DNA from: Bacillota bacterium | Lineage (GTDB): Bacteria > Bacillota > Sulfobacillia > JAJYWN01 | DNA length: 64,000 nt | Reading direction: 5' to 3' | NCBI GenBank assembly: GCA_021791495.1 | Contig: JAJYWN010000016.1 | Coordinates: 38,970 to 102,969 of the forward strand | Shown here: piece by piece, positions 4,246-30,776 of the stretch | Layout: every line of letters begins with the position of its first letter | Numbering within the stretch: position 1 is the stretch's first letter | Program-made: the position numbers and the translations under genes | The notes under the pieces: model-generated | What the model saw: only the letters and a program-made list of their open reading frames with translations | Database searches by the model: none | Told to the model about the DNA's origin: nothing

Positions 4246-4249
4246 TGCC

Positions 4250-9105: not shown

Positions 9106-9132
9106 TGGTCTTCACTCCTTGAGGGTGAACTG

Positions 9133-9606: not shown

Positions 9607-9692
9607 GCGATGCTCACTTCCTTCCGAAAACGCGCGGCTCCAGGTGAACCAAGCTGCCCGGGGCGCTGTAAGACGCTGGATTGAGAGGCGAG

Positions 9693-9725
9693 AGGAGAGG
9701 CTGCCGGAGCATGGCAGCCTCTCCT
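9693..9725. other. 13-bp perfect hairpin between tctC and tctB
   Basis: AGGAGAGGCTGCC-ggagcat-GGCAGCCTCTCCT; no U-tract on the minus strand. Confidence 0.6.
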
Positions 9726-9741
9726 TCTCTAGACGGACTCG

Positions 9742-13511: not shown

Positions 13512-15272
13512 ATGGCATTGACTGGTGGGCGCTACGCCGACAAGAAAGCCATCGACGTCCTACTGACCACGGAGGGCACGTATCCGGTGGCCCGTGGCGG
13601 CGTGGGCACTTGGTGCGACACGCTGATTCGAGGCGTACCCGGCGTGAATTACAGCGTCTACGTGGTCATGGCCCATCCCTACCTACCGGACCGTTATAAG
13701 ATTCCGAGCGGCGTCTCTGTGTTGCGTGTCCCGATGTGGGGCACGGAGGAGCCTACCGAACACCTGGACGTGCCGTTCTCGGAGATCTACGAACGGAAAC
13801 TGCGCACCACCCCGTCCGTGCTGACGGCGGATTTCCTGCCGATGGTCGACAGTTTCATGACCGACCTCTGGAACCCGGACCCAGATGGACACAGACTGGG
13901 TCAAACGATGTTCAGCATGTATCGCTGGTTCAAGATTCACGACTACATGGAGGCCATGAAGTCCCGTGAGGTCTGGGACTTCTTCATCCGGGGCCTACGC
14001 GAAGAGCGCTGGAACAAATTCCCGTCCCCGCCCACTTTGACCGATTGCGTCCAGTCCATGGGCTGGCTCTACCGCTTCTTCGTCGTTCTCACTACGCCCG
14101 TACCCCTTGCCGACGTGACCCATAGCTCGGCGGCGGCCTTCTCCGGGCTACCGGGAGTCCTGGCGAAACTGGACCGGAAGACACCGTACCTTCTGTCCGA
14201 GCACGGAGTGTACCTGCGCGAGCAGTACCTGTCCGTGGGAAAGTCGAAGATGACTGCCTACGCCAAGCAGTTTTTGATTGGACTGGTGCGCGGCACGGTC
14301 ACGGCCAACTACGCCCACGCCGACGTGGTGGCGCCCGTCGCCGCCTTCAACGCCAGGTGGGAGAGACGGTTCGGCGTGCCGGAGGACAAGATCCGCGTCA
14401 TCTATAATGGCGTCGATCCCAACGCCTTCAAGCCACGGCCGCGTCCCGAGAACACGGTGCCGACCGTCGTCACGCTGGCGCGCATCGACCCGCTGAAAGA
14501 CATCCTGACGCTGATCCGGTCAGCCGCCTACGTCCGCGAAAGGATGCCCGAGGCCAAGTTCGTGGTCTACGGCGGGGTTAGCGTACCCAGCTACTATCGG
14601 GAATGCCTCGAACTCCGCGACCAGTTGGGTCTACAGGAGAGCTTCATTTTCGCCGGGCATGTGGACGATGCACCGTCCGCCTACGCCAGCGGGGACCTGG
14701 TAGTTTTGTCAAGTGTCAGTGAGGGCTTCCCCTACACCGTGGTTGAGGCGATGATGTCCGGCCGCGCCGTGGTGGCCACGGACGTGGGCGGCACCAGGGA
14801 GGCCTGCGCGGGGGCCGGCCTCTTGGTTGAGCCCGGCAATCACGCGGAGATGGGCGAAGCAATCCTCCGTCTGCTCCATGATCCAGCCCTACGCGCGTCG
14901 CTGGCCGCGGAAGCCCGCGAAAGAGCGCTGGCTTACTTCACGATTCAGCAGAATCTGAACCTATATAGAAAAGCTTATGAGGATCTGGCGCAGCCAGAGG
15001 AAGTTTCGGTCGATGTGTCGAAATTTATCGGTCGCCGCCGCATGCTTGCGTTGGTGCGTGCCAGGGCCTTGCAGGCCATCGGCCGAAACGCGGAGGCCAT
15101 TCGGGAATACCGCGTCGCGGTCGACTTGGCACCTACGGACGCTACGGCGCCGGCGCTCCTTCTAACCATAGCCGAGCTTTATCTATCGCGCGGGGAAATT
15201 CAGCGCTCATGGCAAGAGATGGAAAGAGCGGAAGCGCTTGCGGCGGCGATTCGCCAACGGAGGGCAGGCTGA
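13512..15272 (+). CDS. pelF: PelF-like GT4 glycosyltransferase (DUF3492) with C-terminal TPR-like extension
   Basis: LLTTEGTYPVARGGVGTWCD, LSEHGVYLRE, IYNGVD, RIDPLKDILTL, SEGFPYTVVEAM; GGAGG RBS. Confidence 0.88.
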   Translation: MALTGGRYADKKAIDVLLTTEGTYPVARGGVGTWCDTLIRGVPGVNYSVYVVMAHPYLPDRYKIPSGVSVLRVPMWGTEEPTEHLDVPFSEIYERKLRTTPSVLTADFLPMVDSFMTDLWNPDPDGHRLGQTMFSMYRWFKIHDYMEAMKSREVWDFFIRGLREERWNKFPSPPTLTDCVQSMGWLYRFFVVLTTPVPLADVTHSSAAAFSGLPGVLAKLDRKTPYLLSEHGVYLREQYLSVGKSKMTAYAKQFLIGLVRGTVTANYAHADVVAPVAAFNARWERRFGVPEDKIRVIYNGVDPNAFKPRPRPENTVPTVVTLARIDPLKDILTLIRSAAYVRERMPEAKFVVYGGVSVPSYYRECLELRDQLGLQESFIFAGHVDDAPSAYASGDLVVLSSVSEGFPYTVVEAMMSGRAVVATDVGGTREACAGAGLLVEPGNHAEMGEAILRLLHDPALRASLAAEARERALAYFTIQQNLNLYRKAYEDLAQPEEVSVDVSKFIGRRRMLALVRARALQAIGRNAEAIREYRVAVDLAPTDATAPALLLTIAELYLSRGEIQRSWQEMERAEALAAAIRQRRAG

Positions 15273-15297
15273 ACGGCACGGAAAGGGTGGGTGTCAC

Positions 15298-15834
15298 GTG
15301 AGCGGTACGACATCCTTACGGCGGCGCATGATGGGGTACTCCCCTGCCGCCGTGGCCGAAGCGTTGCGGCAAGGCCAGGAACGCCATAACCAGGAGATGG
15401 AGCGTCTCCGGCAGGAGCTCGAGAAGTTGCGGGAGAAATCGGCGGCCCTGTCCAGGCAGATTTCGGCGGCCGAGGCCAAAGCCCAGAGCACCGACGTCCT
15501 GGTCCACACTTTGACCGCCCGTATCCTGGAATGGGTTAATCAGCGGGCCGGTGCCGTTAAGGCCCTTGCTGAGCGTGATACCCGGGCCGAGAGTGAACTG
15601 CGGTCCGAATTGGAGAGGCTGCACGCCGTGCTGACGCACCTTCAGGAATCTCAGTCCAGGTTTGGCAATGAACTCAGCAGTCTGATGCGGCGCTTCCGCG
15701 ATGAGGTCGTGTCCTTGCGGGTCGGACTTCCGTCATCCTCGCCGGCGAACAGCGCGTTGTCTGAAGTGGCGGCCGGGCCACGGACCCAGATGCCTTCTCT
15801 TCCAGGGGAACGGAAGGAGTCCGCTATCAGATGA
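15298..15834 (+). CDS. DivIVA-like coiled-coil protein
   Basis: N-terminal RRRMMGYSPAAV resembles the DivIVA F-x4-GY-x3-V head, followed by a heptad coiled coil; GTG start. Confidence 0.6.
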   Translation: MSGTTSLRRRMMGYSPAAVAEALRQGQERHNQEMERLRQELEKLREKSAALSRQISAAEAKAQSTDVLVHTLTARILEWVNQRAGAVKALAERDTRAESELRSELERLHAVLTHLQESQSRFGNELSSLMRRFRDEVVSLRVGLPSSSPANSALSEVAAGPRTQMPSLPGERKESAIR

Positions 15835-17285
15835 CCCGGGCAGACCGTAAGAGGGCCGGGTTGCCTGTGGAGCGACTCGGGAGAAGCTTTATCGGTCTGG
15901 ATCCCGCGGTGGTGGAGGACGTCCTTCGCCATCAGTCGGCGGAGGACGCACGCCAGCAACTCTTCCTTCAGGAGCTAGTCAAGGCTGAACAGGCCCAGCA
16001 GGAACGGCTGCGGTCTCGCCTGACGTCGGTCGAGAACGACCTGCGCGTCGAGGAGGCGCAGGCCGCCCACCTGGAAAGCGCCGCGAAACTGGCCGATGAT
16101 ACCGGTGAGATCATCCGTGAGGCTGTCCAGCGCTATCTGAATGTCCTGGAGGGCGAGGCGGCCGAGCGGCGCAGCGGGTTGGAGATGCGTGTTTCCGAAC
16201 TCCGCGACCAGGTCCGGCAAAGTATCCGGCAGCTCGAACTGGCCGCCGAGCAGATGGGCGCTCTGAAGGGGGGAGACCGCTCGGGCCTAATGGCGGGCTT
16301 CCCCGGATCGATTGGGCTAAACCCGGCTACGTCCCTCGTGCCACCGGTACCCGCAATTCGTCGTTCGGAGTCTCCTCCGGACGTTCCGCCTCCGAGTCCG
16401 CTCCGAGCCCCGGCGACGGTCCAGAGTCCGGCGGCCGACCGCTCACCCGCCGACCAGCGGTCGAACCCTGGTTCAGGTGGTCGGGTGGTGCTTTTCCGGG
16501 CTGCCTCCGCGCATGAAAATGAACCCGACACAGAACCGCGGCCGGCTGAGCCTGAGTTGGCCGGACGGGAGCGGTCCGATGAGCCGCCGGCGGCTGGTTA
16601 TCTTCCGGTGTCGCCAGCATACCAGTCCTTCGGGAGGTCGGCGGCCACCGACTTCACCGAAGGCTCGGACACAAGGGGGGAGGAGCCGCCGGCGCTGTTC
16701 CCGGTCCCCCCGATCCCGACGACCGACGAGAGACTGGAGGGCGACCCGAAGCCGGCGGTACCGGCTGCGACGTCACCACCGGTCCGAATGAGAGCGCCTC
16801 CCCCGGCCCTTGAGGACAGCCACGCGACCACCGTGCCGGTAAGCGCTGGACCAGCAAGGACGAGCCTGTTCGCTACGGCGTCCCCAGCCGAGCCCGAGAC
16901 GGCCGCCCCGCCCGGGGTCGCACCTCGATCCGCGGCAGCCGGCGCCCCGGAAGGGGATGCACCGGTCGAGGCCGTCCCAGCCGCCGCGACCGCGGTAAGC
17001 GCCCCCAGCGCGCCAGGGGGCGACGCCCCACCGAAGATAGCCCAACCCGCTCCGGCCCCTTCCGCTGCGCAGATGGCCGCCGGCATCAAAGGCCGTCTGG
17101 CTTTGAGCATGGCCAGGCTTCTCGATGGGAAGGTCGTTGGAACGGACCTCCGGGATGATGGCGGGAACCTAGTCGCGGCCCGCGGCACGCCGATCACGTC
17201 CGAAGTGACGGCGAAAGCCGAGGCGGCGGGACTCTTACCCGACCTGATTCTTCATATGGTGTGGCCCGAGGAAGTGGAGGCGTGA
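15831..17285 (+). CDS. DivIVA-like coiled coil + Pro/Ala-rich linker + conserved-looking C-terminal domain
   Basis: RSFIGLDPAVVEDVL head, coiled coil, long disordered region, C-terminal LLDGKVVGTDLRDDGGNLVAARGTPITSEVTAKAEAAGLL; ATGA overlap with the previous gene. Confidence 0.7.
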   Translation: MTRADRKRAGLPVERLGRSFIGLDPAVVEDVLRHQSAEDARQQLFLQELVKAEQAQQERLRSRLTSVENDLRVEEAQAAHLESAAKLADDTGEIIREAVQRYLNVLEGEAAERRSGLEMRVSELRDQVRQSIRQLELAAEQMGALKGGDRSGLMAGFPGSIGLNPATSLVPPVPAIRRSESPPDVPPPSPLRAPATVQSPAADRSPADQRSNPGSGGRVVLFRAASAHENEPDTEPRPAEPELAGRERSDEPPAAGYLPVSPAYQSFGRSAATDFTEGSDTRGEEPPALFPVPPIPTTDERLEGDPKPAVPAATSPPVRMRAPPPALEDSHATTVPVSAGPARTSLFATASPAEPETAAPPGVAPRSAAAGAPEGDAPVEAVPAAATAVSAPSAPGGDAPPKIAQPAPAPSAAQMAAGIKGRLALSMARLLDGKVVGTDLRDDGGNLVAARGTPITSEVTAKAEAAGLLPDLILHMVWPEEVEA

Positions 17286-18880
17286 GCCGTGCCCCGAGGG
17301 TGGCTGATTCCGGAGATTCCGTAGACTTCCAGAGCCTCCGGCGTCAGATCTCCGAAAGCGGTTCCCACCCGCTCGACGTATCGCATGTCGCCGCCATGCT
17401 GGAGCTAAGCGGGATCACCGACCGCCGGGCGGTGTCCCTGGGGTACGATGACGTCTTCGACCTGGCACAGGCCCTCTATGAGTCGCTCTCGACGGACATG
17501 CGTTGGGAGACGGTCTTGGCCGATGACGGAGATCCCTGGTACAAGAGGTTCTTCCAGACTATCCGTCTTTACCTGCGCGGCCTCTCTTTCGCCGCGCCCA
17601 TGATTCTGTCGTCCGCTTCGGTCCTGGCGCTGCGTTTCTCCCTATGGTCCTACGTGGATTTCAGCACGGAAATCGCCACGGCCATCGCCCTGGCCACCTT
17701 CGGCAGCTTCCTGGTGACCGGCGGATTCACCCAGGCCATCGCCCGCCGTGGGCTGTTCTACATCACCCAGGAACAGTGGCGCCTGGCCCGCATATCCACG
17801 GCCCGCCTGCTACTGATGGGAGTATATGCCATCGTCCTGACGGTGCTGCTCGTCATCATCTTTGTGGCAATCATCCCCATCTTGCCTTGGCCGATCGTGG
17901 GCTACACCTTCTTGTACTTCCTCCCCATGTCCTTCATCTGGCTGGGGACGGGGCTTCTCTATATGCTCGACTGGGAGCCGGTCATCCTCGTGCTCATCAG
18001 TTTCGGCATCGGGATGGTGTATTACTTCTTCGATATCCGCAAGGTTCCGATGATGTACGCGCAGGCCATCAGCATGTGGATCATCGCCGTCATTTCCTTC
18101 CTCCTGGCCTTCGTCCTCTTCCGGCGCCTGGAAAGGCGGAATCCCAAGGAGATGGAGCAGTCGCACCGGATGCGCTGGTCACAGGCCACCCGGTCGCTCA
18201 TGCCCTTCTTCATCTACGGCGTCGCCTATTTCGCTCTGAACTTCGCCGATCGGGTCATGGCCTGGTCGCGCCCCGAGGAGTTTCACCCCTACTTCATCTG
18301 GTTTCGCGGCGACTACGAGCTCGGCCTAGACTGGGCGCTGTGGTGTCTGTTCGTGCCTATGGGAATAGTCGAGATTTACATCGTCGGGATGTTCCGCCGG
18401 ATCCAACGCCTCGGAAAGCACGTGAATGTGGCCAACATCCCCGCCTTCAATCGTGGCTTTCAGTTGTACCACCTGCGGACCATGATCCTCGTTCTCGTAT
18501 CCGGGTTCGCCAGCATCCCCGGCCTGGTCTGGCTGGCGAAATGGCTTTTCCAACTGGGGTTGCTGTACTTCGACCCGATGGACAACCCCATCACCCGTTT
18601 CGTATTCCTGGTCGGATCGCCGTCTTTCAGCATCATCGCCGCCGGGCTGCAGGGGTCTCTGGTGCTCTTCAGTTTGAACGAACCTTGGGTCGCCACTCGG
18701 GCGGCCGGCTCGGCGTTGCTCCTGAACATCATCGTGGGGTTCCTGGCCAGCCGCTATGTAGCCTACTGGTGGGCCGTGTGGGGGTTGGCTGTGGGAAGCC
18801 TGGTCTTCACCGGCCTCATCACGGTCCAGGCGATGCGGGTCCTTGGCCGGTTGGATTTCCACCTGATGCGGGGCGCCTAG
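17282..18880 (+). CDS. pelG: PelG-like polysaccharide transporter/membrane protein
   Basis: About 12 TM; FADRVMAWS and YELGLDWAL resemble PelG motifs; N-terminal VAAMLELSGITD...YDDVFDLA; downstream of pelF. Confidence 0.7.
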   Translation: MSRAPRVADSGDSVDFQSLRRQISESGSHPLDVSHVAAMLELSGITDRRAVSLGYDDVFDLAQALYESLSTDMRWETVLADDGDPWYKRFFQTIRLYLRGLSFAAPMILSSASVLALRFSLWSYVDFSTEIATAIALATFGSFLVTGGFTQAIARRGLFYITQEQWRLARISTARLLLMGVYAIVLTVLLVIIFVAIIPILPWPIVGYTFLYFLPMSFIWLGTGLLYMLDWEPVILVLISFGIGMVYYFFDIRKVPMMYAQAISMWIIAVISFLLAFVLFRRLERRNPKEMEQSHRMRWSQATRSLMPFFIYGVAYFALNFADRVMAWSRPEEFHPYFIWFRGDYELGLDWALWCLFVPMGIVEIYIVGMFRRIQRLGKHVNVANIPAFNRGFQLYHLRTMILVLVSGFASIPGLVWLAKWLFQLGLLYFDPMDNPITRFVFLVGSPSFSIIAAGLQGSLVLFSLNEPWVATRAAGSALLLNIIVGFLASRYVAYWWAVWGLAVGSLVFTGLITVQAMRVLGRLDFHLMRGA

Positions 18881-18908
18881 AAGGGCGCCCCGACGGAGGA
18901 CGTGTTCT

Positions 18909-20891
18909 TTGGCAGACATTCGTCCCTGGCCGTGGGTAGCAGCCATAGCGCTTCTTCGGGTGGCACTGGCCATTGGCGTCATCTATGTCTTGCTGCCCTG
19001 GGTCATGTTCCCGCGCCTGGACGAGCCCGAAGACAACCCCCTAGTCTCACGGGCAATCTGGATATCCTTCTTTAGCGCGGTGGTCGTGCATGTCCTGGCG
19101 GGGTTGCGCATTTTCGAGGCCCCCGTCTTCATCGTGATCTGCCTGCTCATGGCCTTGAAGAACCGGCTCTACGCCGTCTCGGTGGAAGGGCGCACCCAGC
19201 TCCGCGTGCGGGCCCTCAGTTGGCTTTTCGATCGGGTAGACGGCAAGCCGCTCGCTCGGCGCGACCATCCTTTCGGCCTGAGGGCTCTGGCCAACCTCCG
19301 CCTGTGGCCGTCGCTGTCGTGGACTATCCTCGCCCTCGAATTCGGGGCCGTGGCCTACATCCTCTTCGCCAAAGCTTTCACCACGCCCGTTCCGCCCCTG
19401 TCCGACGCGCCGGTGAACCTCGCGTGGATGAAGTACGTCGAGAACAACGTCCTATACCACAATGAGGTCTACCCGCGGGGGATGTACACCGCGCTGTCCC
19501 TGCTGCGCAAGTTCACGTGGCTGTTGTCTTTCGTCCTCCTCGACATGGCCGGCCCCCTGATCAGCCTGGCCTCCGTGGCGTCACTAGCCTTCTTCATTCG
19601 GAAGACGACCGATTCCTGGGGCGCCGTGGTGGTTACGGTCGCCTTGTATGGCTTATTCCCGACCTTCCTTCCGGCCGACCTGGGTCGCCGGGGTGCCCCA
19701 AACTCCGAGGAGTTCGGCTTCATTTTCATCCTTCTGGCCGCCTGGTTCTTATGGTCCTTCCTAATACAGGGGCGCAGGGGTGACCGGACCACGGCCGCCG
19801 CCGCCGCGGGCATGGCGGCTTTCACTCACCCGGTTTCCGCGCTCTTTACCATTGCTATGATGGCGGGCGTGACCCTTTCGTCCATCATCTACCGCTGGAA
19901 TCAGGCTTGGCGGCGGCTGCCCGGGGCCGTCCTCTGGGCCGGCGGGGCCGGGGTCATCGCGGCCCTCCCGCCTTTCACGGCCATCCTCTTCGGCGAGACC
20001 TGGCATTCCTCGTCGCTGCAGTATCTCACTACCACTACGGGCGCTCTCTCCGAGATGAACCCGCTCCATGTGGGAGCGCTGGCCCTCTCCGGCGGGTTGG
20101 CCCTCATCCTGCCGATCGTCGCTTGGCGCCTGGGGCAGAAGACCGCGGGTCTGGGCGCCGCCGCCGCCGTGGCCGCCGTTGGCTTGGTGGTATACCTGGC
20201 GCCCAACTTCGGCCTGAACAGCGGGGTACTGCTCGACCGTGGCGGTGAGATCGGGGCCATCGGCCTCGCCGTGCTGGCCGGGCTGCTGTGGGCGCTGGTG
20301 GAGCGCTCCCTGGGACGGTTTCGTCAGGCGGGGGTGCTGGCTGCGGTACTGGCCGTGGGGCTGACTTTCTCCAAGGTCCCGACATCCGGTCCGCAACCCT
20401 ACTACTACTACTCCCGGGAGATGATCGAGACCTATATGCGCGGCGCCTTGACCTATGAGCCCGGCACCTGGACCCTTGTCGCCGGTTTCCGGGGGTACTC
20501 CCTGGCTCTGGGCCGGGCCATTCACAACTACCCGAACGATTTCCTCCTGATGGCCTCGCAGATGCCGGTCGACCTAGCCCAGTGGTATGATGCCCCCTGG
20601 AAGCTCGCCAACGGGCAGACGACCAAGGAGAAAACCCCGAACTTCGTCCTCGTGGTCGAGAAAGTCTCTCCGGTCGCGCCCGGAACAAACGACCGGGCCC
20701 GCGAGGAGGCAACCTTGGCCGACGCGGCCAAATTGGAGGCGTGGATACAGGAGAACCGGGGGAAACTGCCGCTCCAACCGATCTTGTCCGATGAGAACGT
20801 TGACGTCTGGACGTTGACGATTCCGGTACCCAAGAAGCCTGGCGATATCTTTAATCCCAGGCCGGCGCCCAGCGGCCCCATCGGGAGGTAG
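18909..20891 (+). CDS. Polytopic membrane protein, GT-C-like (paralog A)
   Basis: Many TM segments; loop SDAPVNLAWMKY...VYPRG; NSEEFG; soluble C-terminal domain; homologous to 27787-29820. Confidence 0.7.
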   Translation: MADIRPWPWVAAIALLRVALAIGVIYVLLPWVMFPRLDEPEDNPLVSRAIWISFFSAVVVHVLAGLRIFEAPVFIVICLLMALKNRLYAVSVEGRTQLRVRALSWLFDRVDGKPLARRDHPFGLRALANLRLWPSLSWTILALEFGAVAYILFAKAFTTPVPPLSDAPVNLAWMKYVENNVLYHNEVYPRGMYTALSLLRKFTWLLSFVLLDMAGPLISLASVASLAFFIRKTTDSWGAVVVTVALYGLFPTFLPADLGRRGAPNSEEFGFIFILLAAWFLWSFLIQGRRGDRTTAAAAAGMAAFTHPVSALFTIAMMAGVTLSSIIYRWNQAWRRLPGAVLWAGGAGVIAALPPFTAILFGETWHSSSLQYLTTTTGALSEMNPLHVGALALSGGLALILPIVAWRLGQKTAGLGAAAAVAAVGLVVYLAPNFGLNSGVLLDRGGEIGAIGLAVLAGLLWALVERSLGRFRQAGVLAAVLAVGLTFSKVPTSGPQPYYYYSREMIETYMRGALTYEPGTWTLVAGFRGYSLALGRAIHNYPNDFLLMASQMPVDLAQWYDAPWKLANGQTTKEKTPNFVLVVEKVSPVAPGTNDRAREEATLADAAKLEAWIQENRGKLPLQPILSDENVDVWTLTIPVPKKPGDIFNPRPAPSGPIGR

Positions 20892-20898
20892 AGCCGAC

Positions 20899-22862: not shown

Positions 22863-23755
22863 GCCATGTTCTCAGCTTCGACGTGGAAAACTGGTTCGAC
22901 GGAAACCTCCACCGCCGCTGGACTGGGAGGCTGGGAGAGACTGGCGCTGCGACTGGCGATCGTCTGCCGGCCGAAGTGGACGCCGTCCTGTCCCTGCTTT
23001 CCGAAGCCGGCGGGGTCAAAGCTACCTTCTTCGTGCTGGGCAGTGTCGCGGCGGCGCATCCCGAGGTGGTGCGCCGGCTGGCCGACGGGGGGCACGAGAT
23101 TGGCTGCCATGGCATGGAGCACGACTTGGTCAGGGAGGTGACGCCCGTCCGCTACCTCGAAGGGCTTCGCCGGGCGCGGGGGCTCTTACAGGAACTGTCC
23201 GGCCAGCCTGTGGCGGGCCATCGCGCTCCTTCTTGGTCCATCGACCGCCGCGTCCCCTGGGCGGTGGCTGCGGTCATCGATGCGGGGTTCAGTTATGACT
23301 CCAGCGTTTTCCCTGCCCGGACGCCTCTCTACGGCGAGCCGTCCTGGCCTGTGGCGCCATTCTGGCTGGCCACTTCTGCCGGGAAGCACCTCCTCGAACT
23401 GCCGCCCGCCGTCCTCCGCTTGGGGCCGCTGTCCCTGCCCTACGGCGGTGGGTTGTACTGGCGCGTGCTGCCATTCGCCTTGGTCCATCTTCTCCTGCGT
23501 CGGGCGAGTTCTCCCCGGGTGACCTATCTGCACCCCTGGGAGCTGAACCCCGAGCCGGCGGGGCCGCTTCCGGCGGGGACACCGTTTGCGGCCAGGGCTG
23601 CCCTGCACTGGGGCGTGAAGCATAGCCGCGGGCGACTGAGGCGCCTCCTGTCGGCCCTTGGATTCCAGGAGTTTCGCGCCGTGGTGGGTAGTCTTTCGGC
23701 CGACCCGCGGCTTCCCACGGTTACTCTCCGAGGTCTGGAGGATGAGGCGGCGTGA
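22856..23755 (+). CDS. CE4 polysaccharide deacetylase (DUF3473 type)
   Basis: LSFDVENWF, ATFFVLG, HEIGCHGMEH, GHRAPSWS, YDSSVFP, YLHPWEL. GTG 22856 overlaps the previous stop. Confidence 0.88.
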   Translation: MVSHVLSFDVENWFDGNLHRRWTGRLGETGAATGDRLPAEVDAVLSLLSEAGGVKATFFVLGSVAAAHPEVVRRLADGGHEIGCHGMEHDLVREVTPVRYLEGLRRARGLLQELSGQPVAGHRAPSWSIDRRVPWAVAAVIDAGFSYDSSVFPARTPLYGEPSWPVAPFWLATSAGKHLLELPPAVLRLGPLSLPYGGGLYWRVLPFALVHLLLRRASSPRVTYLHPWELNPEPAGPLPAGTPFAARAALHWGVKHSRGRLRRLLSALGFQEFRAVVGSLSADPRLPTVTLRGLEDEAA

Positions 23756-25557
23756 TCCTGTCGGAAATGCCTTGGTGGGTGTCGGCGGCAGCTGGAGCCG
23801 CTTCGATCCTTCTAGCCTGGATTATTTCGTCGCTCGTGTTCGGAGGGGCGCGACGCCGCCGCGGAGACCCGGTGGCCCCGGTGTCTCTGCCGGGTCTGGA
23901 GAACGTCCAATCGCTGGACGAAGCCAGCGCCCGCATCCTGGACCACGTGGCCACCTGGGTCAAGGGGAAGTCCTATCACGCCTACTGGCTCGACGACAAG
24001 GGCGGGGCCTGGTGGCTGCGGGCCAGCCTCACCAGACCGGAATATCCGGACGTGGCTCCGAACTACTCCGGCCTGGTCATGGACGGCAGCCGGGCCGTAC
24101 CGCTATCCTTGCCCTTCGACGCGACCTTGACCTCCTCGCGCATCCGGGGGCCCCGCGACGAGCGTTGGCTGGACCTGCCCATCGGCAAGGACCTGCTGGT
24201 AACCGTCCTCCTCGGGCCGATTGGTGCCCTATCCGTCGCCGAGATCAGGCGGCTGGACCAGTCCTGCCAGACCCTGGCGCCGCTGGCTCTGACCGTGCGC
24301 CGCTGGCGCTCCGCGATGGAGGAAGCCCAGCACTATCGCGATTTGCTGGAGTCCACCCGCGTGGCTCTTGATGTCACGCTCCATATCGATCGGGCCGTCG
24401 AACTGCTCCTGAACGTTGGAGGCCAAGCGGTGGAGGCTCTGGTTCAGGTGGCGGTGGTGGAAGGGCCCAAGGAACCCTTGATCATCTCCAATTCCAGTGA
24501 AGGCAAAGCGCTGGGCCGCCGGATCGCCGAGAACGCGGAGCCGCGCCTGATGGCGCTGCCCCCCCAGCCCGACGTGGTTCCCGGAAGCCGGATGCCCACC
24601 CTGGGCTCGCTCTACAACGGCTGTGTGCGCGTCCCGGTGATGGTTTCCGGCAAGGAACCGGTGGGCTGTTTCTTCTACTTCATGAAGCACGCGCCGGCGG
24701 TCAACGGATACCAGACCGCGGTCCTCCGGGCTCTGGGCGAGAGAGCGTCGCAATTGGTGGCCAGCCAGCGCCAGGTCCAGAATGCCTCGGCAGGGTACGC
24801 CGATACTCTGGGAATCCTAGTCAATGCCATGGACGGCCTGTCCCCGCATAGCCAGGGGCACTCTCTTCGGGTGGCCCGGTTGGCCCGAATGATCGCCGGA
24901 CAGATGAAGCTGCCGCCGGACGAGGCGCAGGCAGTGGCCCAGGGTGCCTTCTACCACGATGTCGGCATGGTAGCGGTCGATCCGCGGGTGGTCCTGAAGC
25001 CCCAGAAGCTCACGTCCGGGGAGTACCAGCAGGTGAAACGGCACGCCGAGTTGGGCGGTCAGCTAGTGAGTGCCCTACCGGCCGCTCTCCCTCTGGGGGA
25101 GATCGTGGCCGGCCACCATGAGCGGTGGGATGGCGACGGGTATCCCCGCGGTCTGCGGGGGGAGGAGATTCCTCTGGGTGCCCGGATCGTGGCGGCCGCT
25201 GATCTGTTCGAAGCCAAGACCACCGGCCGCGCCTACCGGTCTCCCGTACCTTTCCTCCAAGCCGTCCAGGACATCCGCGCCGCGGCCGGCAGCCATTTGG
25301 ACCCCCAGGTAGTCGGCGCGTTGGTAGCGGCTTTCGCGGAGGCGGCGCGGGCGGTGTCGCCAAGCCTGCCCCTGGCCGCTTGCTGGGAGATGCGGTGCAT
25401 CCCGGCGGCCGTCTGTTCGGGGTGCGTCAACCGGCAGACCGGCGCGGGGCGTTGTTGGGAGGCGGGGAGCAACCTGTGTTCCCGCCACGGCGACCGTTGC
25501 GCGGAATGCCTTGTCTACACCGAAGCGACTTCGCGTTTGGCGGCGGGACGCGCGTGA
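23752..25557 (+). CDS. TM + GAF-like + degenerate HD-GYP + C-terminal Cys/Trp-rich (two-CW-like) protein
   Basis: N-terminal TM; GHSLRVA, YHDVGM, HHERWDGDGYP, ADLFEAK; tail CWEMRC...C..C...CWE...C......C..CLVY. Confidence 0.85.
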   Translation: MILSEMPWWVSAAAGAASILLAWIISSLVFGGARRRRGDPVAPVSLPGLENVQSLDEASARILDHVATWVKGKSYHAYWLDDKGGAWWLRASLTRPEYPDVAPNYSGLVMDGSRAVPLSLPFDATLTSSRIRGPRDERWLDLPIGKDLLVTVLLGPIGALSVAEIRRLDQSCQTLAPLALTVRRWRSAMEEAQHYRDLLESTRVALDVTLHIDRAVELLLNVGGQAVEALVQVAVVEGPKEPLIISNSSEGKALGRRIAENAEPRLMALPPQPDVVPGSRMPTLGSLYNGCVRVPVMVSGKEPVGCFFYFMKHAPAVNGYQTAVLRALGERASQLVASQRQVQNASAGYADTLGILVNAMDGLSPHSQGHSLRVARLARMIAGQMKLPPDEAQAVAQGAFYHDVGMVAVDPRVVLKPQKLTSGEYQQVKRHAELGGQLVSALPAALPLGEIVAGHHERWDGDGYPRGLRGEEIPLGARIVAAADLFEAKTTGRAYRSPVPFLQAVQDIRAAAGSHLDPQVVGALVAAFAEAARAVSPSLPLAACWEMRCIPAAVCSGCVNRQTGAGRCWEAGSNLCSRHGDRCAECLVYTEATSRLAAGRA

Positions 25558-26384
25558 GCCGGCGCCTGGGCGATGTGCGGACCTTTGCCGTGTACTACGG
25601 CACCGGCGGCGAGGATGTCCTGTCCACCTATGACCTGGCCATCGTGGCCGCGCCGGGGCGAGACCGGGAGCGGATCGCCGCCATAAGGGAGAAGGGCACC
25701 TTGATCTTGGCCTACTTGAGCGTTTTGGAAGCGCCGCTGGGCGAGCCTGATGATGTCCGAAGGCCGGGAGAGGCACTCGTCCAGGAGGCTCCCGCTAATG
25801 TCCTGACCGGCCCGGGAGGACCGGTGGTCAACCGGCAATGGAGGACGTGGGTGCTGGATCCGCGGCATGAGAGAACTCGCGACCGATTCCTCGGTCAGGC
25901 CGAAGACCTGCTTGATCGGGGATATGATGGCCTCTTTCTCGACACCATGGCCGACTTGGAAGATCTGCCCGAGGCCGTGGCCGCCGGTGGGTTAACGGGG
26001 CAGGCGACCATCGTAGAGGCCGCCCGCCTGGTAGCCGAGGCCGCGGCTAGCTTCGGGTGCGCGATGGTTCAGAACCGTGGCTTTCGCCTCCTGCTGCCCC
26101 TGACCATGCCGTATCTTGATGGGTTGTGCTGGGAGTCCTTCCCGTATCGCCGGATCGGGCTCTTCCCCCGGAGGAACCGCACCATCCGCTCACTACAAGG
26201 GGCGGAGGGAGCTGCCGGACTACGCGTTCTGGCACTGAACGAATGGAGCGAGACCAAAGTCGCCCAACAGGAGGAGCGTTCGGCCTCGCGCGCGGCCCGA
26301 CGGTGCGGCTTTCCGTGGTATGGGACCCTCCACTACACTGATCTGCCCAGCCCGGCCCCGGCGGCGGGAGTGATGCCGACATGA
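25554..26384 (+). CDS. PelA-like endo-alpha-1,4-galactosaminidase (GH114/GH166-like TIM barrel)
   Basis: FAVYYG, YDLAIV, LAYLSVLE, GYDGLFLDT, VQNRGF, LCWESF; GTGA overlap start at 25554. Confidence 0.78.
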   Translation: MSRRLGDVRTFAVYYGTGGEDVLSTYDLAIVAAPGRDRERIAAIREKGTLILAYLSVLEAPLGEPDDVRRPGEALVQEAPANVLTGPGGPVVNRQWRTWVLDPRHERTRDRFLGQAEDLLDRGYDGLFLDTMADLEDLPEAVAAGGLTGQATIVEAARLVAEAAASFGCAMVQNRGFRLLLPLTMPYLDGLCWESFPYRRIGLFPRRNRTIRSLQGAEGAAGLRVLALNEWSETKVAQQEERSASRAARRCGFPWYGTLHYTDLPSPAPAAGVMPT

Positions 26385-27715
26385 TCTTCAGTCGAAATCT
26401 TCTCTTGGCGGCCGTGTCTTTCTTCCTGTGGTCCGCCTCGTACAACCTCATAGCTCCGTTCCTCCCGCTTCTCGCCAGGGAGTTGGGCGCCACCTCGGTC
26501 CAGATGGGCTTGGTGGGAAGCATCGGAATGCTGGGAGCCGCCACCTTGGTGTTCCCCATCTCGGTCCTGTCCGACCGGGTCGGCCGGCGCCCGGCTCTGG
26601 TCCTGGGATGGGTCGCCAGCGCCGCCGGGATGTTCATCATGTGGCCGGCCCGATCCTGGGCCGGCCTGCTGCCGGGTGTCTTTTTGTCTATGGCGGCGGT
26701 GGCCGCGCTACCGACCTTGAACGCCTTGGCTCTGGAGGAGCTTCCGGCGCCCCGGCGTGCCCGTGGGTTCGCCTTGCTCTACGCCGCCGCACCCCTGGGG
26801 ACCCTCCTGGGGTCGGCGGTGTCGGGGTTCCTCGGCACGCTGGTGGGTCTGCAGGCCAGCACGGCGGTGGCCGGCGCCTGTCTCTTAGGAGCAACTCTGG
26901 TGCTGCTGCCGATCACGGAGCGCCGTCCTGCCGGAGCAGATGAAACTGCCACGGCCGGGGCGGCCGCGAGCGGCAGGCCGGGCGGGTCGACTGGACCGGG
27001 CGGACCGGGCGGACCGGGCGAACGAGGCGGGCCAGGCGGGTCCGCCGCCACCGACGGTCGCCAACCAGGCGGAATACTCCTAGCCCTGTTCAGCGTGATG
27101 TCAGCCGGGGCTCTCTTCCTCATGGGCTTGCCGGGGAGCTTCATCGTTCCCTATGTCAAGGAGGTTTCCCGGGTCAGTCTCGTGCTGGCGGGGCTGGCCG
27201 TTTCGGTCCTGTCCGGCGCCCAGCTGGCCTGGTCGCTACTGTTCTCTACATGGCCGCGGTTTTCCGGGAGAGTCCGGGTGGGGCGTGGCCGGACCGAACT
27301 CGAACTCTCGCGCGCCACACTTCAGGCGATAACTGTTTGCCTGGCCGCCAACGCGCTGTTCGGTCTGCTTCTCCCCTCAGGGTTGGCCGCCGCCGCCGTG
27401 GTCGCTCTGGTCCTTCGGGGCAGTCAGTTTGCCTTGCAGTCTCTGGGATCCGCGCTGATGGGCGATGTCGTACCTGTCGGCCCGGGTCTCAGTACCCGGT
27501 TGACCACCCTCAGCGTGGCGCTGGGAGTCGGCGCCGCTGCCGCCCCGGTGGCGGGGGGATGGCTTTACGGCATCCGGCCCGCGTTGCCCTTTTGGGTCAT
27601 GGCCGCGGCGGCCGCCGTGGGCGCGGTCCTCCTGGCAGCCGTCAACCAGTGGTTGCCGGAAGCCGGCGCCCGGGCCGAGCGCCGCTCCGGCGTGGCGGCA
27701 GGAGAGAATCCGTGA
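26381..27715 (+). CDS. MFS transporter
   Basis: Motif A (LSDRVGRRP); 12 TM with a Gly/Pro-rich central loop. Confidence 0.85.
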   Translation: MIFSRNLLLAAVSFFLWSASYNLIAPFLPLLARELGATSVQMGLVGSIGMLGAATLVFPISVLSDRVGRRPALVLGWVASAAGMFIMWPARSWAGLLPGVFLSMAAVAALPTLNALALEELPAPRRARGFALLYAAAPLGTLLGSAVSGFLGTLVGLQASTAVAGACLLGATLVLLPITERRPAGADETATAGAAASGRPGGSTGPGGPGGPGERGGPGGSAATDGRQPGGILLALFSVMSAGALFLMGLPGSFIVPYVKEVSRVSLVLAGLAVSVLSGAQLAWSLLFSTWPRFSGRVRVGRGRTELELSRATLQAITVCLAANALFGLLLPSGLAAAAVVALVLRGSQFALQSLGSALMGDVVPVGPGLSTRLTTLSVALGVGAAAAPVAGGWLYGIRPALPFWVMAAAAAVGAVLLAAVNQWLPEAGARAERRSGVAAGENP

Positions 27716-27786
27716 ACGGCCAATGCTGTTCCTACCCTGATCGATGGAGGCCCGCCGGCGGGTAGGCGGACACTGTCAAAGAAGGA

Positions 27787-29820
27787 GTGAGGTCGGGCGT
27801 GCTGCGAGCGGAAGAGGCGCTTTCCATAGCCTTGCGTTTCGCCTTCTGGTTCGGCCTTTTCCCGTACATCCTTCTGTCTGGCCGGGGCCGGCCGCGCCTC
27901 GACCGCTTCATGATGGGCCTTCTGGGTTCGCTGGCGCTGGTCATTGTCGAGGGGCAGGTTCTGTCGGCGCTGGGGTTGTGGGAGCCCATATCTGTGTGGG
28001 GTACGGTCTTGGCCTTCATCCTGGCAACGATCGCCCGCCGCCTCCGGGGCGTGAACTGGGAGAGCAAGCTGCTCAAGAGCCTTGAGCGGACCGAGGAAGG
28101 CGGGGTGGAGGAACTCCGGAACCTGGTCGCCAAGGGGCGGGAGAGCGTCTCCAGCCGCCGCCAGAGAAGGCCGTCGGCGAGGCGCGGCGCGCGGGCCGAC
28201 CGGGATGTCCTCGCCTGGGTTGTCGGAGCCGTGGTGATGGCCGGCGCACTGTTCCTCTTATACAATCAGGTGATCAGACACTACTACCTGCCGGCCTCTG
28301 AGTCCTACCAGCACCTGGCGTGGGTCAAGTATCTGCAGAAGTCCCCGGCGACGGTGGGCCAACCCACACATATCTACCAAGAAGGGGTCTATCCCTACGG
28401 CTATCATGCTTTCATATCGGCTCTGAGCCTCCTGGACTTCCTCGATCCCTTCATCGTCATCAGTTTCGCCGGCCCTCTGACCGGCCTCTTGCTCCTTCTG
28501 TCCGTTGGATACGCCGCCTACCGGCTAACCGGCAGGGTGATCTCGGCCGCACTCGCGATGGGCGTTCTGGCTGCCGGTTACTTCGGCTCGGGTGTCACTG
28601 GCGCTTCACGGGCCATCAGCCCTCTCCCTCCGGAGTTCGGGGCCGTCTTCGCCCTTCCCAGCCTGGTGAGCGCATGGCTCTTCCTGAGCACCCGCAGCCG
28701 GGATCAGGCGATCCTGGCGGTCGGGGCGGCCTTTCTGACGGCTGCCGTCTCCCCTTGGGCTTTCTGTTACCTGCTGGTGGCCCTCCTTATCCTCGGCGTG
28801 GTCGCCAGCGCCGCACGCCTGGCTGCCGGGCGGACGGCCGTCCGGCTGTTTCTGGGGGCGGCGGGGGCGGGGATCGTCACCGCGGTCCCCCTTGTGGCCG
28901 CGCGCTTATACGGTATCCCCTTCCATCCCGGCCTTTCGCCATGGTCACCGGGGAAAGGGATCCTGGCCGCCGGCGGAGGGAGCACCGCGGGCGGCTGGAT
29001 CTCGGCGGGGTTTGCCCACGTCGGCCTGGGAGCGGGCGTCTTGCTCCTGGTGGCCGGAGTCATCGGCTGGCGCCGTGGAGAGAAGGCGAACTCTCCCTTG
29101 GCGGTGGGCCTGGGTACCATGATCGTCCTCTCCTTCGTCCTATCGGGAGCCTGGGAAGGGCCGCTCTTCGTGGACCCGGCGCTGGCCAGCCTGCTCTTCG
29201 CTCTTTTCGCGGCGCTGGGAGCGGGACTGGGTCTGAACTTCGTCGCCGATGTCCTGATGTTGAACGGCCGGTGGCGGACGGGGATCGCGGCGGTCCTACT
29301 GATAGGTGCAGTCTTTTATTGGAAGCCGGTCCCGGCGGTGCCGCTCGGCCAGTACGAATACGACGACGAGGCTAAGGCGTATCTGTATATTGTGCACATG
29401 GCCCGGCGGTGGGACTGGACCATCATCTCGACGCAGGCGGCCCTCCCCAAGGTCCTCGGGTACGGTTTCCACATGCAAATTCTGGAGTTTGCCCGAAGCT
29501 ATTCCTACGATCAGATCCGTGAACCTGGCTTCGAACTGGCCACGAAGGATACAGGCGACTTCTTCATCTTCATCGAGAAAGTGCCGCTGGGAACCAAGGA
29601 GACCATCGAACCGAATGCGCAGACGCCTTTCCCGGTGGGCCGGGGGCTGGGCGCCACGACCGATGGATATTACCTGGATCCCCAGGCGCGTGCGAGTATC
29701 ATGGCCAGGTCCTGGGGGTTTGTCGAGGAATACCGGAAGATTCACCCGGATCTGGTGAAAGTCATTGTGGATAACCAGACCTTCCGCGTCTACCGGATCA
29801 CGCATGCGGGGGGACCATAA
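27787..29820 (+). CDS. Polytopic membrane protein, GT-C-like (paralog B)
   Basis: SESYQHLAWVKY...VYPYG; PLPPEFG; same architecture as 18909-20891. Confidence 0.7.
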   Translation: MRSGVLRAEEALSIALRFAFWFGLFPYILLSGRGRPRLDRFMMGLLGSLALVIVEGQVLSALGLWEPISVWGTVLAFILATIARRLRGVNWESKLLKSLERTEEGGVEELRNLVAKGRESVSSRRQRRPSARRGARADRDVLAWVVGAVVMAGALFLLYNQVIRHYYLPASESYQHLAWVKYLQKSPATVGQPTHIYQEGVYPYGYHAFISALSLLDFLDPFIVISFAGPLTGLLLLLSVGYAAYRLTGRVISAALAMGVLAAGYFGSGVTGASRAISPLPPEFGAVFALPSLVSAWLFLSTRSRDQAILAVGAAFLTAAVSPWAFCYLLVALLILGVVASAARLAAGRTAVRLFLGAAGAGIVTAVPLVAARLYGIPFHPGLSPWSPGKGILAAGGGSTAGGWISAGFAHVGLGAGVLLLVAGVIGWRRGEKANSPLAVGLGTMIVLSFVLSGAWEGPLFVDPALASLLFALFAALGAGLGLNFVADVLMLNGRWRTGIAAVLLIGAVFYWKPVPAVPLGQYEYDDEAKAYLYIVHMARRWDWTIISTQAALPKVLGYGFHMQILEFARSYSYDQIREPGFELATKDTGDFFIFIEKVPLGTKETIEPNAQTPFPVGRGLGATTDGYYLDPQARASIMARSWGFVEEYRKIHPDLVKVIVDNQTFRVYRITHAGGP

Positions 29821-29837
29821 CAAAGGGGGAACGAGTC

Positions 29838-30776
29838 GTGGGGGCTGAGGCGGTTGCTAGAGTTCTGGTCACCGGGGGTGCCGGTTTCGTGGGGTCCTAC
29901 GTGGCCAGGGCGTTGCTGGGCGCGGGCCAGGAGGTGGTGATCCTGGACGACCTGTCATCCGGTTTCGCCAGTAACGTTCCGGCCGGGGCCAGACTGGTGG
30001 AAGGTGACATAAGGGACGCCGCCCACCTAGAGCGCGTGCTGGCGGGGACGCGGCCCCAAGGGGTGGTTCATTGCGCCGCACAAGTGGGCGTTAGCGCCTC
30101 GGTAGCCGACCCCATGAACGATCTGGAACGCAACATAGTAGGAACGGTGAGGCTGGTTCAGGCGGCGGCCGCGGCCGGGGTCCGGTCCTTCGTCTACTCT
30201 TCGTCGGCGGCCGTATACGGCAACCCCGAGAGCGTGCCCATCACGGAGACGCATCCCACGAAGCCCCTCAGCCCCTACGGTCTGTCGAAGTTGACAGCCG
30301 AACGGTACGTCGCTCTCCTGGGCGAGCAATACGGCCTGAAATGGGCCTGCCTCCGATACGCCAATATCTTCGGGCCCGGCCAGCGGGCGGCGGGCGACGG
30401 GGCCGTGATACCGACTTTCCTGGAAGCCTTCGCGTCCGGACGCGATCCCGTGATTCAGGGAGACGGAGAGCAGACGCGGGATTTCATCTTCGTGGAAGAC
30501 GTGGCCAAGGCCAACCTCCTGGCTCTTTCGGGTGATGCTTCCGGGGTCTTCAATGTCGGAAGCGGTCAGGCCATGAGTATCAAGGCGCTCTGGCAAGCCG
30601 CGGCGTCCCTCATGGGATGGGACCGGCCGCCCGTCTACGGACCACCGCGTCCCGGTGACATCCGCGACTCCGTCCTGTCGGTGAGCGCCGCTGCCCAGAG
30701 TCTGGGGTGGGGTTCGCAGACGAGGTTCGGCGATGGCCTGCGGGCCACGGTGGCGGCGCTGAGACAGACTCTTTGA
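29838..30776 (+). CDS. galE: UDP-glucose/UDP-GlcNAc 4-epimerase (GalE/PelX-like SDR)
   Basis: TGGAGFVG, HCAAQ, SSSAAVYG, YGLSK, LRYANIFGP, TRDFIFVEDVA. Confidence 0.88.
   Translation: MGAEAVARVLVTGGAGFVGSYVARALLGAGQEVVILDDLSSGFASNVPAGARLVEGDIRDAAHLERVLAGTRPQGVVHCAAQVGVSASVADPMNDLERNIVGTVRLVQAAAAAGVRSFVYSSSAAVYGNPESVPITETHPTKPLSPYGLSKLTAERYVALLGEQYGLKWACLRYANIFGPGQRAAGDGAVIPTFLEAFASGRDPVIQGDGEQTRDFIFVEDVAKANLLALSGDASGVFNVGSGQAMSIKALWQAAASLMGWDRPPVYGPPRPGDIRDSVLSVSAAAQSLGWGSQTRFGDGLRATVAALRQTL

Follow-up and report, generated by a model that had tools for sequence, protein, structure and literature searches.

A thirteen-gene Pel-type polysaccharide operon from Bacillota without detectable PelD or PelE

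On contig JAJYWN010000016.1 of a Bacillota bacterium (assembly GCA_021791495.1), thirteen co-directional genes on the forward strand form one tight operon for a Pel-type surface sugar polymer. They span positions 13512-30776 of the 64,000-nucleotide stretch that we analyzed, hereafter the window. Few synthase-dependent biofilm polymers are widespread, and Pel is among them. To our knowledge, current models treat PelD and PelE as indispensable and have cyclic di-GMP (c-di-GMP) act via PelD. Yet there is no detectable PelD or PelE homology in the operon, in the window or in 81 related loci. We consider it reasonably probable that the operon specifies a synthase-dependent system of the Pel type for the production, decoration and export of an amino-sugar polymer, probably rich in N-acetylgalactosamine (GalNAc) or galactosamine (GalN), and that this system represents a conserved lineage of its own, nearly confined to Bacillota.

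Operon layout and the Pel-type core

The open reading frame (ORF) listing and the publicly available annotation of the source contig agree on the thirteen genes; this contig is 185 kb long and comes from a mine-drainage metagenome assembly. Seven junctions overlap, at 15831 (-4 bases), 17282 (-4), 21699 (-19), 22856 (-7), 23752 (-4), 25554 (-4) and 26381 (-4). All seven coordinates match exactly those in a preliminary description made from the sequence alone, which had listed 13 co-directional genes with these overlaps. The non-overlapping gaps in the block measure 7 to 71 base pairs (bp), and no promoter-like or terminator-like signal rose over background inside it (terminator-like sites, 15 observed against 12.6 ± 3.8 in shuffles).

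The first gene (13512..15272, +) encodes a PelF-type glycosyltransferase. Its product scored 156 bits against the NCBI PelF equivalog NF038011 (cut-off 100) and carries a DUF3492 domain (Pfam, 8.6e-38) along with GT4 domains; no transmembrane (TM) segment was found in it. It therefore has the make-up of a PelF, a cytoplasmic GT4 enzyme with an N-terminal DUF3492 domain, and the PelF-like gene of the preliminary description is borne out. Its family aligned with canonical PelF at 5.9e-60 in hhalign. Beyond the catalytic part, the protein ends in an extra tail of ~80 amino acids (aa) with two tetratricopeptide repeats (TPRs; about 15030-15272), and TPR Pfam models matched the C-terminal tails of 39 of the 46 family members.

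The fourth gene (17282..18880, +) encodes a 532-aa membrane protein that we regard as a PelG-like exporter with a MOP-superfamily fold. Half of its homologues (15/30) matched the PelG model PF16933, over profile positions 27-452 of 452 and at best with 4.8e-11, and one of the ten homologues examined in detail passed the gathering score. An AlphaFold2 (AF2) model of the window protein (mean predicted local distance difference test score, pLDDT, 84.7) retrieved MATE, MurJ and WzxE in Foldseek with a probability of 1.00 and TM-scores of 0.5-0.6. An additional conserved cytoplasmic helical domain of ~100 aa lies at its N-terminus. The homologues are ~530 aa long, come mostly from Bacillota and are all annotated 'hypothetical'; the family profile, like that of the membrane protein encoded next to it, matched no sequence in the PDB. 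Taken together, the homologue matches and the modelled fold point to a distant PelG relative rather than a standard member, so that the PelG-like assignment proposed earlier for 17282-18880 survives in this weaker form.

The preliminary description had proposed a comparison of gene neighborhoods. Scanning GTDB with a single genome for each species, we found 80 loci encoding a relative of the PelG-like protein; with a locus from Paenibacillus phyllosphaerae, the set comprises 81. The same gene set recurs beside the PelG-like gene in these 81 loci of other genomes, and its grouping is therefore more than chance. The cassette is kept in ~80 species, nearly all of them Bacillota; carriers include Paenibacillus, Psychrobacillus, Paenisporosarcina, Priestia abyssalis, Tumebacillus, Desulfosporosinus, Clostridium, Pelotomaculum, Dethiobacter and many Clostridia metagenome-assembled genomes (MAGs). 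At a larger scale, a search of 1.84 billion representatives with the profile of the PelG-like family gave 977 clusters at 50% identity, of which 338 reached E<=1e-30. Two apparent carriers outside Bacillota, Ca. Udaeobacter (L013) and an Ignavibacteriales genome (L010), were rejected as real spread: over the compared stretch of the HD-GYP protein described below, the former is identical to Paenibacillus sp. Soil522 (L024) and the latter near-identical to a Bacillota MAG (L030), so both are probably mis-binned contigs.

The order PelF with TPR tail, small coiled-coil gene, large coiled-coil gene, PelG-like gene and GT-C-fold glycosyltransferase gene is conserved, and the genes for an ATP-grasp ligase, deacetylase, GT2 glycosyltransferase, HD-GYP protein, GH114-like protein and epimerase follow in varying order. 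We counted families in the 47 loci with full 10-kb flanks; these counts are lower bounds, as the cassette often extends beyond the flank. GT-C enzymes were encoded in all 47 loci, PelF in 44, GT2 in 40, HD-GYP in 38-42, a MurJ-like flippase in 35, DUF2304 in 33, ATP-grasp in 32, the deacetylase and the GH114-like protein in 28 each, and the epimerase in 24, on either side of the cassette. What had been taken for a large accessory set thus recurs across the loci, with GT-C, GT2 and HD-GYP each in at least 38 of the 47, and is therefore not accessory.

The cassette PelFs group together as a single clade in a tree of PelF sequences (support 97/98). Their sister clade (100/100) consists of PelFs from Streptomyces californicus, Deinococcus and Thermus, while proteobacterial and Cetobacterium PelFs, whose loci carry PelD or genes in the PelD position, lie across a branch with 100/100 support. 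Furthermore, one genome, a Peptostreptococcaceae MAG (L064), has a canonical Gram-positive pel locus and the variant cassette side by side: the former ends at 3-4246, directly upstream of the cassette, with a canonical PelG (284 bits) followed by CotH, a VTC polyphosphate polymerase and DUF4956. CotH, VTC and DUF4956 are the accessory set described for clostridial pel loci (Whitfield et al. 2020, PMC7112168). The tree and this adjacency agree with the earlier proposal of a distinct class.

PelD, PelE and their possible stand-ins

For the search for PelD and PelE, reference pel loci with annotated PelD and PelF/PelG were taken from plasmids of Burkholderia thailandensis, Azonexus and Pseudoalteromonas, with the unannotated gene between PelD and PelF serving as PelE. 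Three alphaproteobacterial loci and a Cetobacterium locus were added, the latter with a Gram-positive-type layout (GH114, GAF-only PelD, DUF2194 PelA_DA, PelE, PelF, PelG); the plasmid collection yielded no Gram-positive canonical pel locus. Proteobacterial PelD and PelE hidden Markov models (HMMs) gave no match at E<=1 in the window or the 81 loci, and HMMs of the proteins in the PelE position of alphaproteobacteria found nothing in the same set; each of these profiles was built from three sequences, so that sensitivity was low. The 13-gene operon encodes no GGDEF-domain protein and no membrane TPR protein, and no window ORF of at least 150 aa contains a GG[DE]EF or EAL motif.

Profile-profile comparison gave a similar picture. 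When the uncharacterized families were aligned by hhalign with PelD, PelE, PelA_DA, PelG and GH114 of Cetobacterium, only generic GAF and CE4 similarity to PelD and PelA_DA emerged. The HD-GYP protein aligned with PelD at 0.34 in one comparison and at 0.018 over 63 columns in that with the GAF-only PelD of Cetobacterium. The coiled-coil pair, the PelG-like protein and the first GT-C enzyme showed nothing against PelE, and the soluble tail of PelF aligned with the TPR part of PelE at 1.3e-4 (probability 54%). The preliminary description had stated that the operon has neither a degenerate-GGDEF PelD nor a membrane TPR PelE, and had named hidden homology, in these ORFs or elsewhere in the genome, as the observation that would speak against it; such homology was sought in the operon ORFs by HMM and hhalign and was not found there. 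For the operon, its statement stands at the level of homology and needs amending at the level of architecture, since the operon carries analogues of both proteins: a TM-GAF-HD-GYP protein and a TPR tail on PelF. With such analogues present, the system may still be under cyclic-dinucleotide control.

The first analogue is a membrane-anchored GAF-HD-GYP regulator (23752..25557, +; HD_5, 1.1e-33), composed of one N-terminal TM segment, a GAF-like region, an HD-GYP domain and a C-terminal tail with eight cysteines. Its profile aligned with HD-GYP structures at 1e-34 to 1e-50 (5z7c at 1.2e-50; also 4mcw) and with GAF structures at 9e-5 (3ci6) and 0.02 (1ykd), and the N-terminal TM segment is present in 42 of 48 family members. 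In the window protein, the HD-GYP metal-ligand set H..HD..H..HH..D and the GYP motif are intact. Y..SN..Q stands in place of H, HD and D in 28-30 of 41 relatives, most of them from Paenibacillus and other Bacilli. His at the first site, the HD pair and the final Asp are retained in about 10 of the 41, including the window protein, that of its nearest relative (L006) and the Desulfosporosinus and Peptococcaceae types. The HHExxDGxGYP residues and two Arg are invariant across the family, while the Lys of HDxGK occurs in no member (Met in the window, mostly Val elsewhere). As the metal site is intact in the window, this protein probably both hydrolyzes and senses a cyclic dinucleotide, be it c-di-GMP or a different one; most Bacilli relatives have lost the site and kept GYP, and there the protein is probably a receptor. 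Degenerate HD-GYP domains have been discussed as possible c-di-GMP targets (PMC12448109, PMC3411652). The eight-cysteine tail (about 25381-25520; CWEMxC...C..C...NCWE...C..HG..C..C) matched no Pfam or NCBIfam model, its Cys columns are at least 90% conserved, and it may be a metal- or redox-sensing module.

Directly downstream lies a gene for a GH114-like TIM-barrel protein of the PelA-hydrolase or Ega3 kind (25554..26384, +). Its GH114 score of 27.5 bits against a cut-off of 27 is marginal; the family profile aligned with a GH114 protein from one pel locus at 7.8e-8 over 98 columns. The earlier mention of a PelA-hydrolase-like gene holds to this marginal degree. None of 38 family members has an N-terminal hydrophobic segment, and neither a signal peptide nor a TM segment was detected. 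In Psychrobacillus, Paenisporosarcina and Priestia abyssalis, the TM segment and first N-terminal domain of the GAF-HD-GYP protein are fused to the GH114-like domain, with the HD-GYP part missing (L073:18156-19559, L023:18185-19606, L027:20134-21528 and L054:20088-21398), and the two proteins are therefore functionally tied.

With PelD, the GAF-HD-GYP protein shares a membrane anchor, a GAF domain and a domain of the cyclic-di-GMP family, and this domain is catalytically degenerate in most Bacilli relatives, as is the GGDEF domain of PelD. It differs in that its nucleotide domain is HD-GYP rather than GGDEF, that it has one TM segment against four in PelD, that a conserved eight-cysteine tail is present and that the metal ligands are intact in the window protein; its sequence homology to PelD is not significant.

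Between the PelF and PelG-like genes lie two genes for coiled-coil proteins. The small one (15331..15834, +; 167 aa) appears to have a DivIVA/GpsB-like N-terminal head; SMC-type coiled-coil models matched it, along with a weak match to the GpsB NCBIfam model. A gene for 100-190 aa occupies its position in 46 loci and keeps an N-terminal (K/R)S(L/F)xGYxxxxV motif. The large one (15831..17285, +; 484 aa) would be a scaffold protein that starts with a DivIVA/GpsB-like head and continues through a coiled coil into a ~270-aa linker rich in Pro and Ala; its conserved C-terminal domain, ~60 aa in length, is similar to a PRC barrel (Pfam PRC barrel in 6 of 47 members, best 7.3e-6). Direct Pfam and NCBIfam scans of the window protein returned nothing even at E<=10, whereas its family profile aligned with GpsB N-domain structures at 9e-5 to 5e-3 (9pv2 at 9.1e-5) and with DivIVA 2wuj at 0.011, and Pfam DivIVA matched 4 of 47 members. 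This gene is likewise kept by position in 46 loci, and the two are fused in 7. Neither TM segments nor TPRs were found in either protein. As in the known membrane-binding DivIVA/GpsB scaffolds, a putative N-terminal head would precede a coiled coil in both; they differ from those scaffolds in their location inside a polysaccharide operon, in the long disordered linker and PRC-barrel-like domain of the larger protein, and in that the similarity is weak, with E about 1e-4. The PelF TPR tail, this pair and the GAF-HD-GYP protein are possible functional stand-ins for PelD and PelE.

Putative decoration genes and a proposed mechanism

The fifth gene (18909..20891, +) encodes a 660-aa membrane protein with ~12 TM segments and a C-terminal extracytoplasmic domain. 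Neither it nor its paralogue described below matched anything in Pfam and NCBIfam scans, even at E<=10. Its AF2 model (pLDDT 87.1, predicted TM-score, pTM, 0.89) has the GT-C membrane fold: the top 22 Foldseek matches were all GT-C enzymes, with DPY19 (1.2e-6), STT3, AftA, ArnT, PglB, PMT and Emb leading, at probabilities of 0.99-1.00 but TM-scores of only ~0.4. The acidic residues E70, D166 and D185, which are nearly invariant in the family, are putative catalytic residues. The twelfth gene (27787..29820, +) encodes a second GT-C-fold protein of 677 aa, whose family aligned with that of the first at 1e-103 over 649 columns in hhalign, and many cassette loci carry such a second copy.

Next to the first of these genes is that of a GT2 glycosyltransferase of the ArnC/PpgS/GtrB type (20899..21717, +; Glycos_transf_2, 3e-21). 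Its nearest NCBIfam models were ArnC (4.5e-15) and PpgS (2.8e-11), both far under their cut-offs, and no TM segment was found; we infer that it is a polyprenyl-phosphate sugar synthase. The two GT-C paralogues and the GT2 enzyme would together constitute a module for lipid-linked sugar decoration. Relatives encode a MurJ-like flippase (176 bits) and a DUF2304 protein (82 bits), neither of which is present in the window operon. Here, the possible stand-in is a lineage-specific transporter of the major facilitator superfamily (MFS; 26381..27715, +; MFS_1, 2.1e-28), found elsewhere only in the nearest relative, L006. The central loop of this transporter contains a Gly/Pro-rich insert of ~40 aa (GRPGGSTGPGGPGGPGERGGPGG...).

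A GT2 enzyme, a candidate flippase and a GT-C enzyme are likewise the components of known three-component glycosylation systems (GtrA/GtrB/GtrV; CsbB/GtcA/YfhO; PpgS/Rv3779). The module described here differs from them in its GT-C family, for which no Pfam model exists, in its flippase candidates, which are MurJ-like and DUF2304 proteins or, in the window, the MFS transporter, and in its placement inside a synthase-dependent polymer operon.

Three further genes encode an ATP-grasp ligase, a deacetylase and an epimerase. The seventh (21699..22862, +) encodes a cytoplasmic ATP-grasp ligase (ATP-grasp Pfam models, ~1e-9), with a signal peptide or TM segment in none of 49 family members. The eighth (22856..23755, +) encodes a cytoplasmic CE4 polysaccharide deacetylase (Polysacc_deac_1, 1.7e-17) with a DUF3473 domain (8.4e-25) of the type associated with XrtA systems; it scored 206 bits against TIGR03006, below the cut-off of 276, and resembles DUF2194-type PelA_DA weakly (1.2e-4). 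No signal peptide was found in 43 of 45 family members. The operon thus lacks a PelA-type pair of extracytoplasmic deacetylase and GH114 hydrolase: the deacetylase and GH114-like families are without signal peptide or TM segment, and the former is of the DUF3473 rather than the DUF2194/PelA type. The last gene (29838..30776, +) encodes a GalE-like NAD-dependent sugar 4-epimerase of the short-chain dehydrogenase/reductase (SDR) superfamily (Epimerase, 4.4e-69), which reached 217 bits against TIGR01179 GalE, below the cut-off of 262; an epimerase gene had been noted earlier, and the assignment holds in this GalE-like sense.

These assignments suggest a mechanism. The GalE-like epimerase would supply uridine diphosphate (UDP)-GalNAc, which PelF, a cytoplasmic enzyme by family membership, would polymerize at the membrane, and the PelG-like protein, by its fold and distant homology, would export the chain. 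Judging from domain content and strict synteny, the PelF TPR tail and the coiled-coil pair may take over from PelE and PelD in organizing the synthase; the pair is predicted to be membrane-binding and might direct synthesis to poles, septa or growth zones. The membrane-anchored GAF-HD-GYP protein would take the regulatory place of PelD, with hydrolysis and sensing of c-di-GMP or another cyclic dinucleotide predicted in this organism and a receptor role predicted in most Bacilli relatives. Together with the GH114-like protein, it would gate the synthase on a cyclic dinucleotide and possibly, via the Cys-rich tail, on redox state or metal. Before export, the deacetylase and the ATP-grasp ligase might modify the sugar or nascent chain, de-N-acetylation followed by N-acylation being one speculative option. 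The GT2 enzyme would make a polyprenyl-phosphate sugar, to be flipped by the MFS transporter here and by MurJ-like and DUF2304 proteins elsewhere, and one or two GT-C enzymes, as their fold suggests, would add this lipid-linked sugar to the polymer outside the membrane. The preliminary description had guessed that the system has its own activation, localization and decoration machinery, a guess that fits the GAF-HD-GYP protein, the DivIVA/GpsB-like proteins and the module of GT2 and GT-C enzymes.

A bolder version of this reading, which we put forward only tentatively, is that the cassette represents a third architectural class of Pel-type systems, with an HD-GYP-gated synthase, spatial targeting by DivIVA/GpsB-like proteins and decoration by a previously unrecognized GT-C family. 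The membrane-anchored GAF-HD-GYP protein, catalytically degenerate in most carriers, would then have replaced PelD as the cyclic-dinucleotide switch. If true, no exopolysaccharide synthase before this one would have been gated by a receptor of the HD-GYP type, and its polymer would be laid down at defined cell sites by dedicated DivIVA/GpsB-like proteins and decorated outside the cell. A conserved lineage without PelD and PelE, with a GAF-HD-GYP protein, DivIVA-like scaffolds and a GT-C decoration module in their place, would show how a Pel synthase can be rewired. Degenerate HD-GYP domains, so far largely hypothetical as receptors, would gain a function. It would also put names to the GT-C family and the PelG-related family of 977 clusters, both now annotated as hypothetical. 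These points are relevant to the biofilm, exopolysaccharide and c-di-GMP fields, and cultivable carriers exist, namely Paenibacillus spp., Psychrobacillus insolitus DSM 5, Tumebacillus flagellatus and Desulfosporosinus acididurans.

Outside the cassette, a gene for a SARP-type regulator (11085..13298, +) with a winged helix-turn-helix, a BTAD domain (Pfam, 6.7e-29) and an AAA_16 STAND ATPase domain (6.4e-24) lies 213 bp upstream of pelF in the same direction and is a possible transcriptional activator of the operon. We rejected it as a cassette member because its position beside the cassette is not conserved in other genomes; BLAST of the 81 related loci found no counterpart. Divergent from it, at 7595-10737 on the minus strand (L001:313-3456), is an operon for a TctCBA tripartite tricarboxylate transporter. 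A thiamine pyrophosphate (TPP) riboswitch (RF00059) is located at 35308-35413 (+), with 62.6 bits against a gathering score of 54.3.

Alternative readings and comparison with known Pel loci

Several observations weigh against the Pel-type reading. Pfam and NCBIfam scans to E<=10 gave no direct match for the PelG-like protein of the window. Its family aligned with proteobacterial PelG colinearly over the full length at a weak E of 0.0056 and a probability of 6.5%, and the profile against the single B. thailandensis PelG sequence reached 0.1%, improving only with alignments on both sides. The best structural relative of the GAF-HD-GYP protein by sequence is a cyclic GMP-AMP (cGAMP) phosphodiesterase. 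E-values of 1e-4 to 1e-5 make the DivIVA-type assignments of the coiled-coil pair weak ones, and the suggested polymer chemistry, of the alpha-1,4-galactosamine type and modelled on the partially de-N-acetylated alpha-1,4-GalNAc of Pel itself, is drawn from PelF-family membership and from sub-threshold GalE and marginal GH114 matches only. Unlike PelA, neither the deacetylase nor the GH114-like protein has a signal peptide, and both may therefore do something other than Pel processing. Finally, an Rfam search of the window and six loci found no c-di-GMP riboswitch.

The strongest rival, unlikely in our view although by no means negligible, holds that the product is a cell-envelope glycopolymer, such as a secondary cell-wall polymer or a spore-coat or exosporium polysaccharide, rather than a secreted biofilm matrix. 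The DivIVA/GpsB-like proteins would then link polymer synthesis with cell division, elongation or the forespore, and attachment or decoration of the polymer on the wall would fall to the GT-C enzymes. Such heads are indeed typical of cell-division and wall-synthesis machinery, and the logic of GT2, flippase and GT-C, the last encoded in every full-flank locus, is the one established for teichoic acids and arabinogalactan. Carriers are nearly all Bacillota and include many spore formers (Paenibacillus, Desulfosporosinus, Clostridium, Psychrobacillus), and a role other than that of Pel is suggested for the cassette by the Peptostreptococcaceae MAG, where a canonical pel locus is present in addition. 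Against this rival, neither the cassette genes nor the recurrent neighbor families include a wall-anchoring enzyme of the LytR-CpsA-Psr (LCP) family, a sortase or a sporulation gene, and HD-GYP control is more typical of lifestyle or biofilm switches. A search for public RNA runs for the Desulfosporosinus locus returned none.

We judge it quite improbable that this is an ordinary Pel operon whose PelD and PelE have diverged past recognition, the GAF-HD-GYP protein being a PelD orthologue with a swapped C-terminal domain and the coiled-coil pair or the PelF tail being the remains of PelE. The shared layout of TM segment, GAF and nucleotide domain, the weak GAF-GAF match to the GAF-only PelD and the alignment of the PelF tail with the TPR region of PelE would all fit. 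These GAF and TPR matches are, however, only of a generic level; the PelD and PelE HMMs are blank in the window and the 81 loci, and the coiled-coil pair has neither TM segments nor TPRs. In addition, the cassette PelFs fall outside the clade of PelFs from PelD loci with full support (100/100), and in L064 a canonical pel locus adjoins the cassette.

Least probable of all is an assembly of unrelated neighbors, in which a PelF/PelG pair, a module for lipid-linked glycosylation and an HD-GYP signaling gene would have nothing to do with one another: gene order downstream of the first GT-C gene does differ between lineages and the MFS and SARP genes are lineage-specific, but seven junctions are translationally coupled, the modules co-occur in 81 loci across Bacilli and Clostridia, and in some genera the N-terminal domain of the HD-GYP protein is fused to GH114.

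Full-text searches of the literature found no description of the cassette. The nearest mention is panel (iii) of S3 Fig in Bundalovic-Torma et al. 2020, which notes Gram-positive loci that have pelF and pelG only. Paenibacillus and Tumebacillus strains appear among the pel carriers in the S1 table of Whitfield et al. (PMC7112168), with loci that may be of the canonical or the variant type.

Among characterized systems, the Gram-positive pelDEA(DA)FG locus of Bacillus cereus ATCC 10987 (Whitfield et al. 2020, PMC7112168) invites the closest comparison. Both have a PelF-type GT4 with DUF3492, a MOP exporter that in the cassette is a distant PelG relative, and a CE4-superfamily deacetylase, with galE and a GH114 (PelA_H-like) gene nearby, and both share a Bacillota host and a link, predicted for the cassette, to cyclic-dinucleotide signaling. 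In contrast to the B. cereus locus, the cassette is without PelD (TM-GAF-degenerate GGDEF) and PelE (TM and TPR). Its deacetylase is cytoplasmic and of the DUF3473 rather than the DUF2194 type, its GH114-like protein is likewise cytoplasmic, its PelF bears a TPR tail and its PelG-like protein an extra N-terminal domain. The cassette further adds DivIVA-like proteins, GT-C enzymes, a GT2 enzyme, an ATP-grasp ligase and the GAF-HD-GYP protein. Its PelF lies in a different deep lineage, and in L064 the cassette adjoins a canonical locus.

The second comparison is with the plasmid loci of Streptomyces californicus (L087), Deinococcus sp. QL22 (L088) and Thermus brockianus (L094), which appear to be uncharacterized. 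These differ from the cassette in having an SDR and a nucleotidyltransferase of their own (Streptomyces and Deinococcus) and an Sph3-like hydrolase (Streptomyces), and in that a DivIVA-like pair, GT2, deacetylase and HD-GYP protein are not annotated in any of them; no gene is annotated as GT-C either, though several are merely 'hypothetical'. The Streptomyces set, with its GH114 gene and its 'spherulation-specific family 4' (Sph3-like) gene, recalls the fungal galactosaminogalactan cluster. The likenesses to the cassette lie in the core: their PelFs are sisters to the cassette PelFs (100/100), the membrane partner encoded downstream of PelF is related to the PelG-like protein (hhalign, 1.3e-13), and all three loci have a GH114 gene and, like the cassette, no annotated PelD or PelE.

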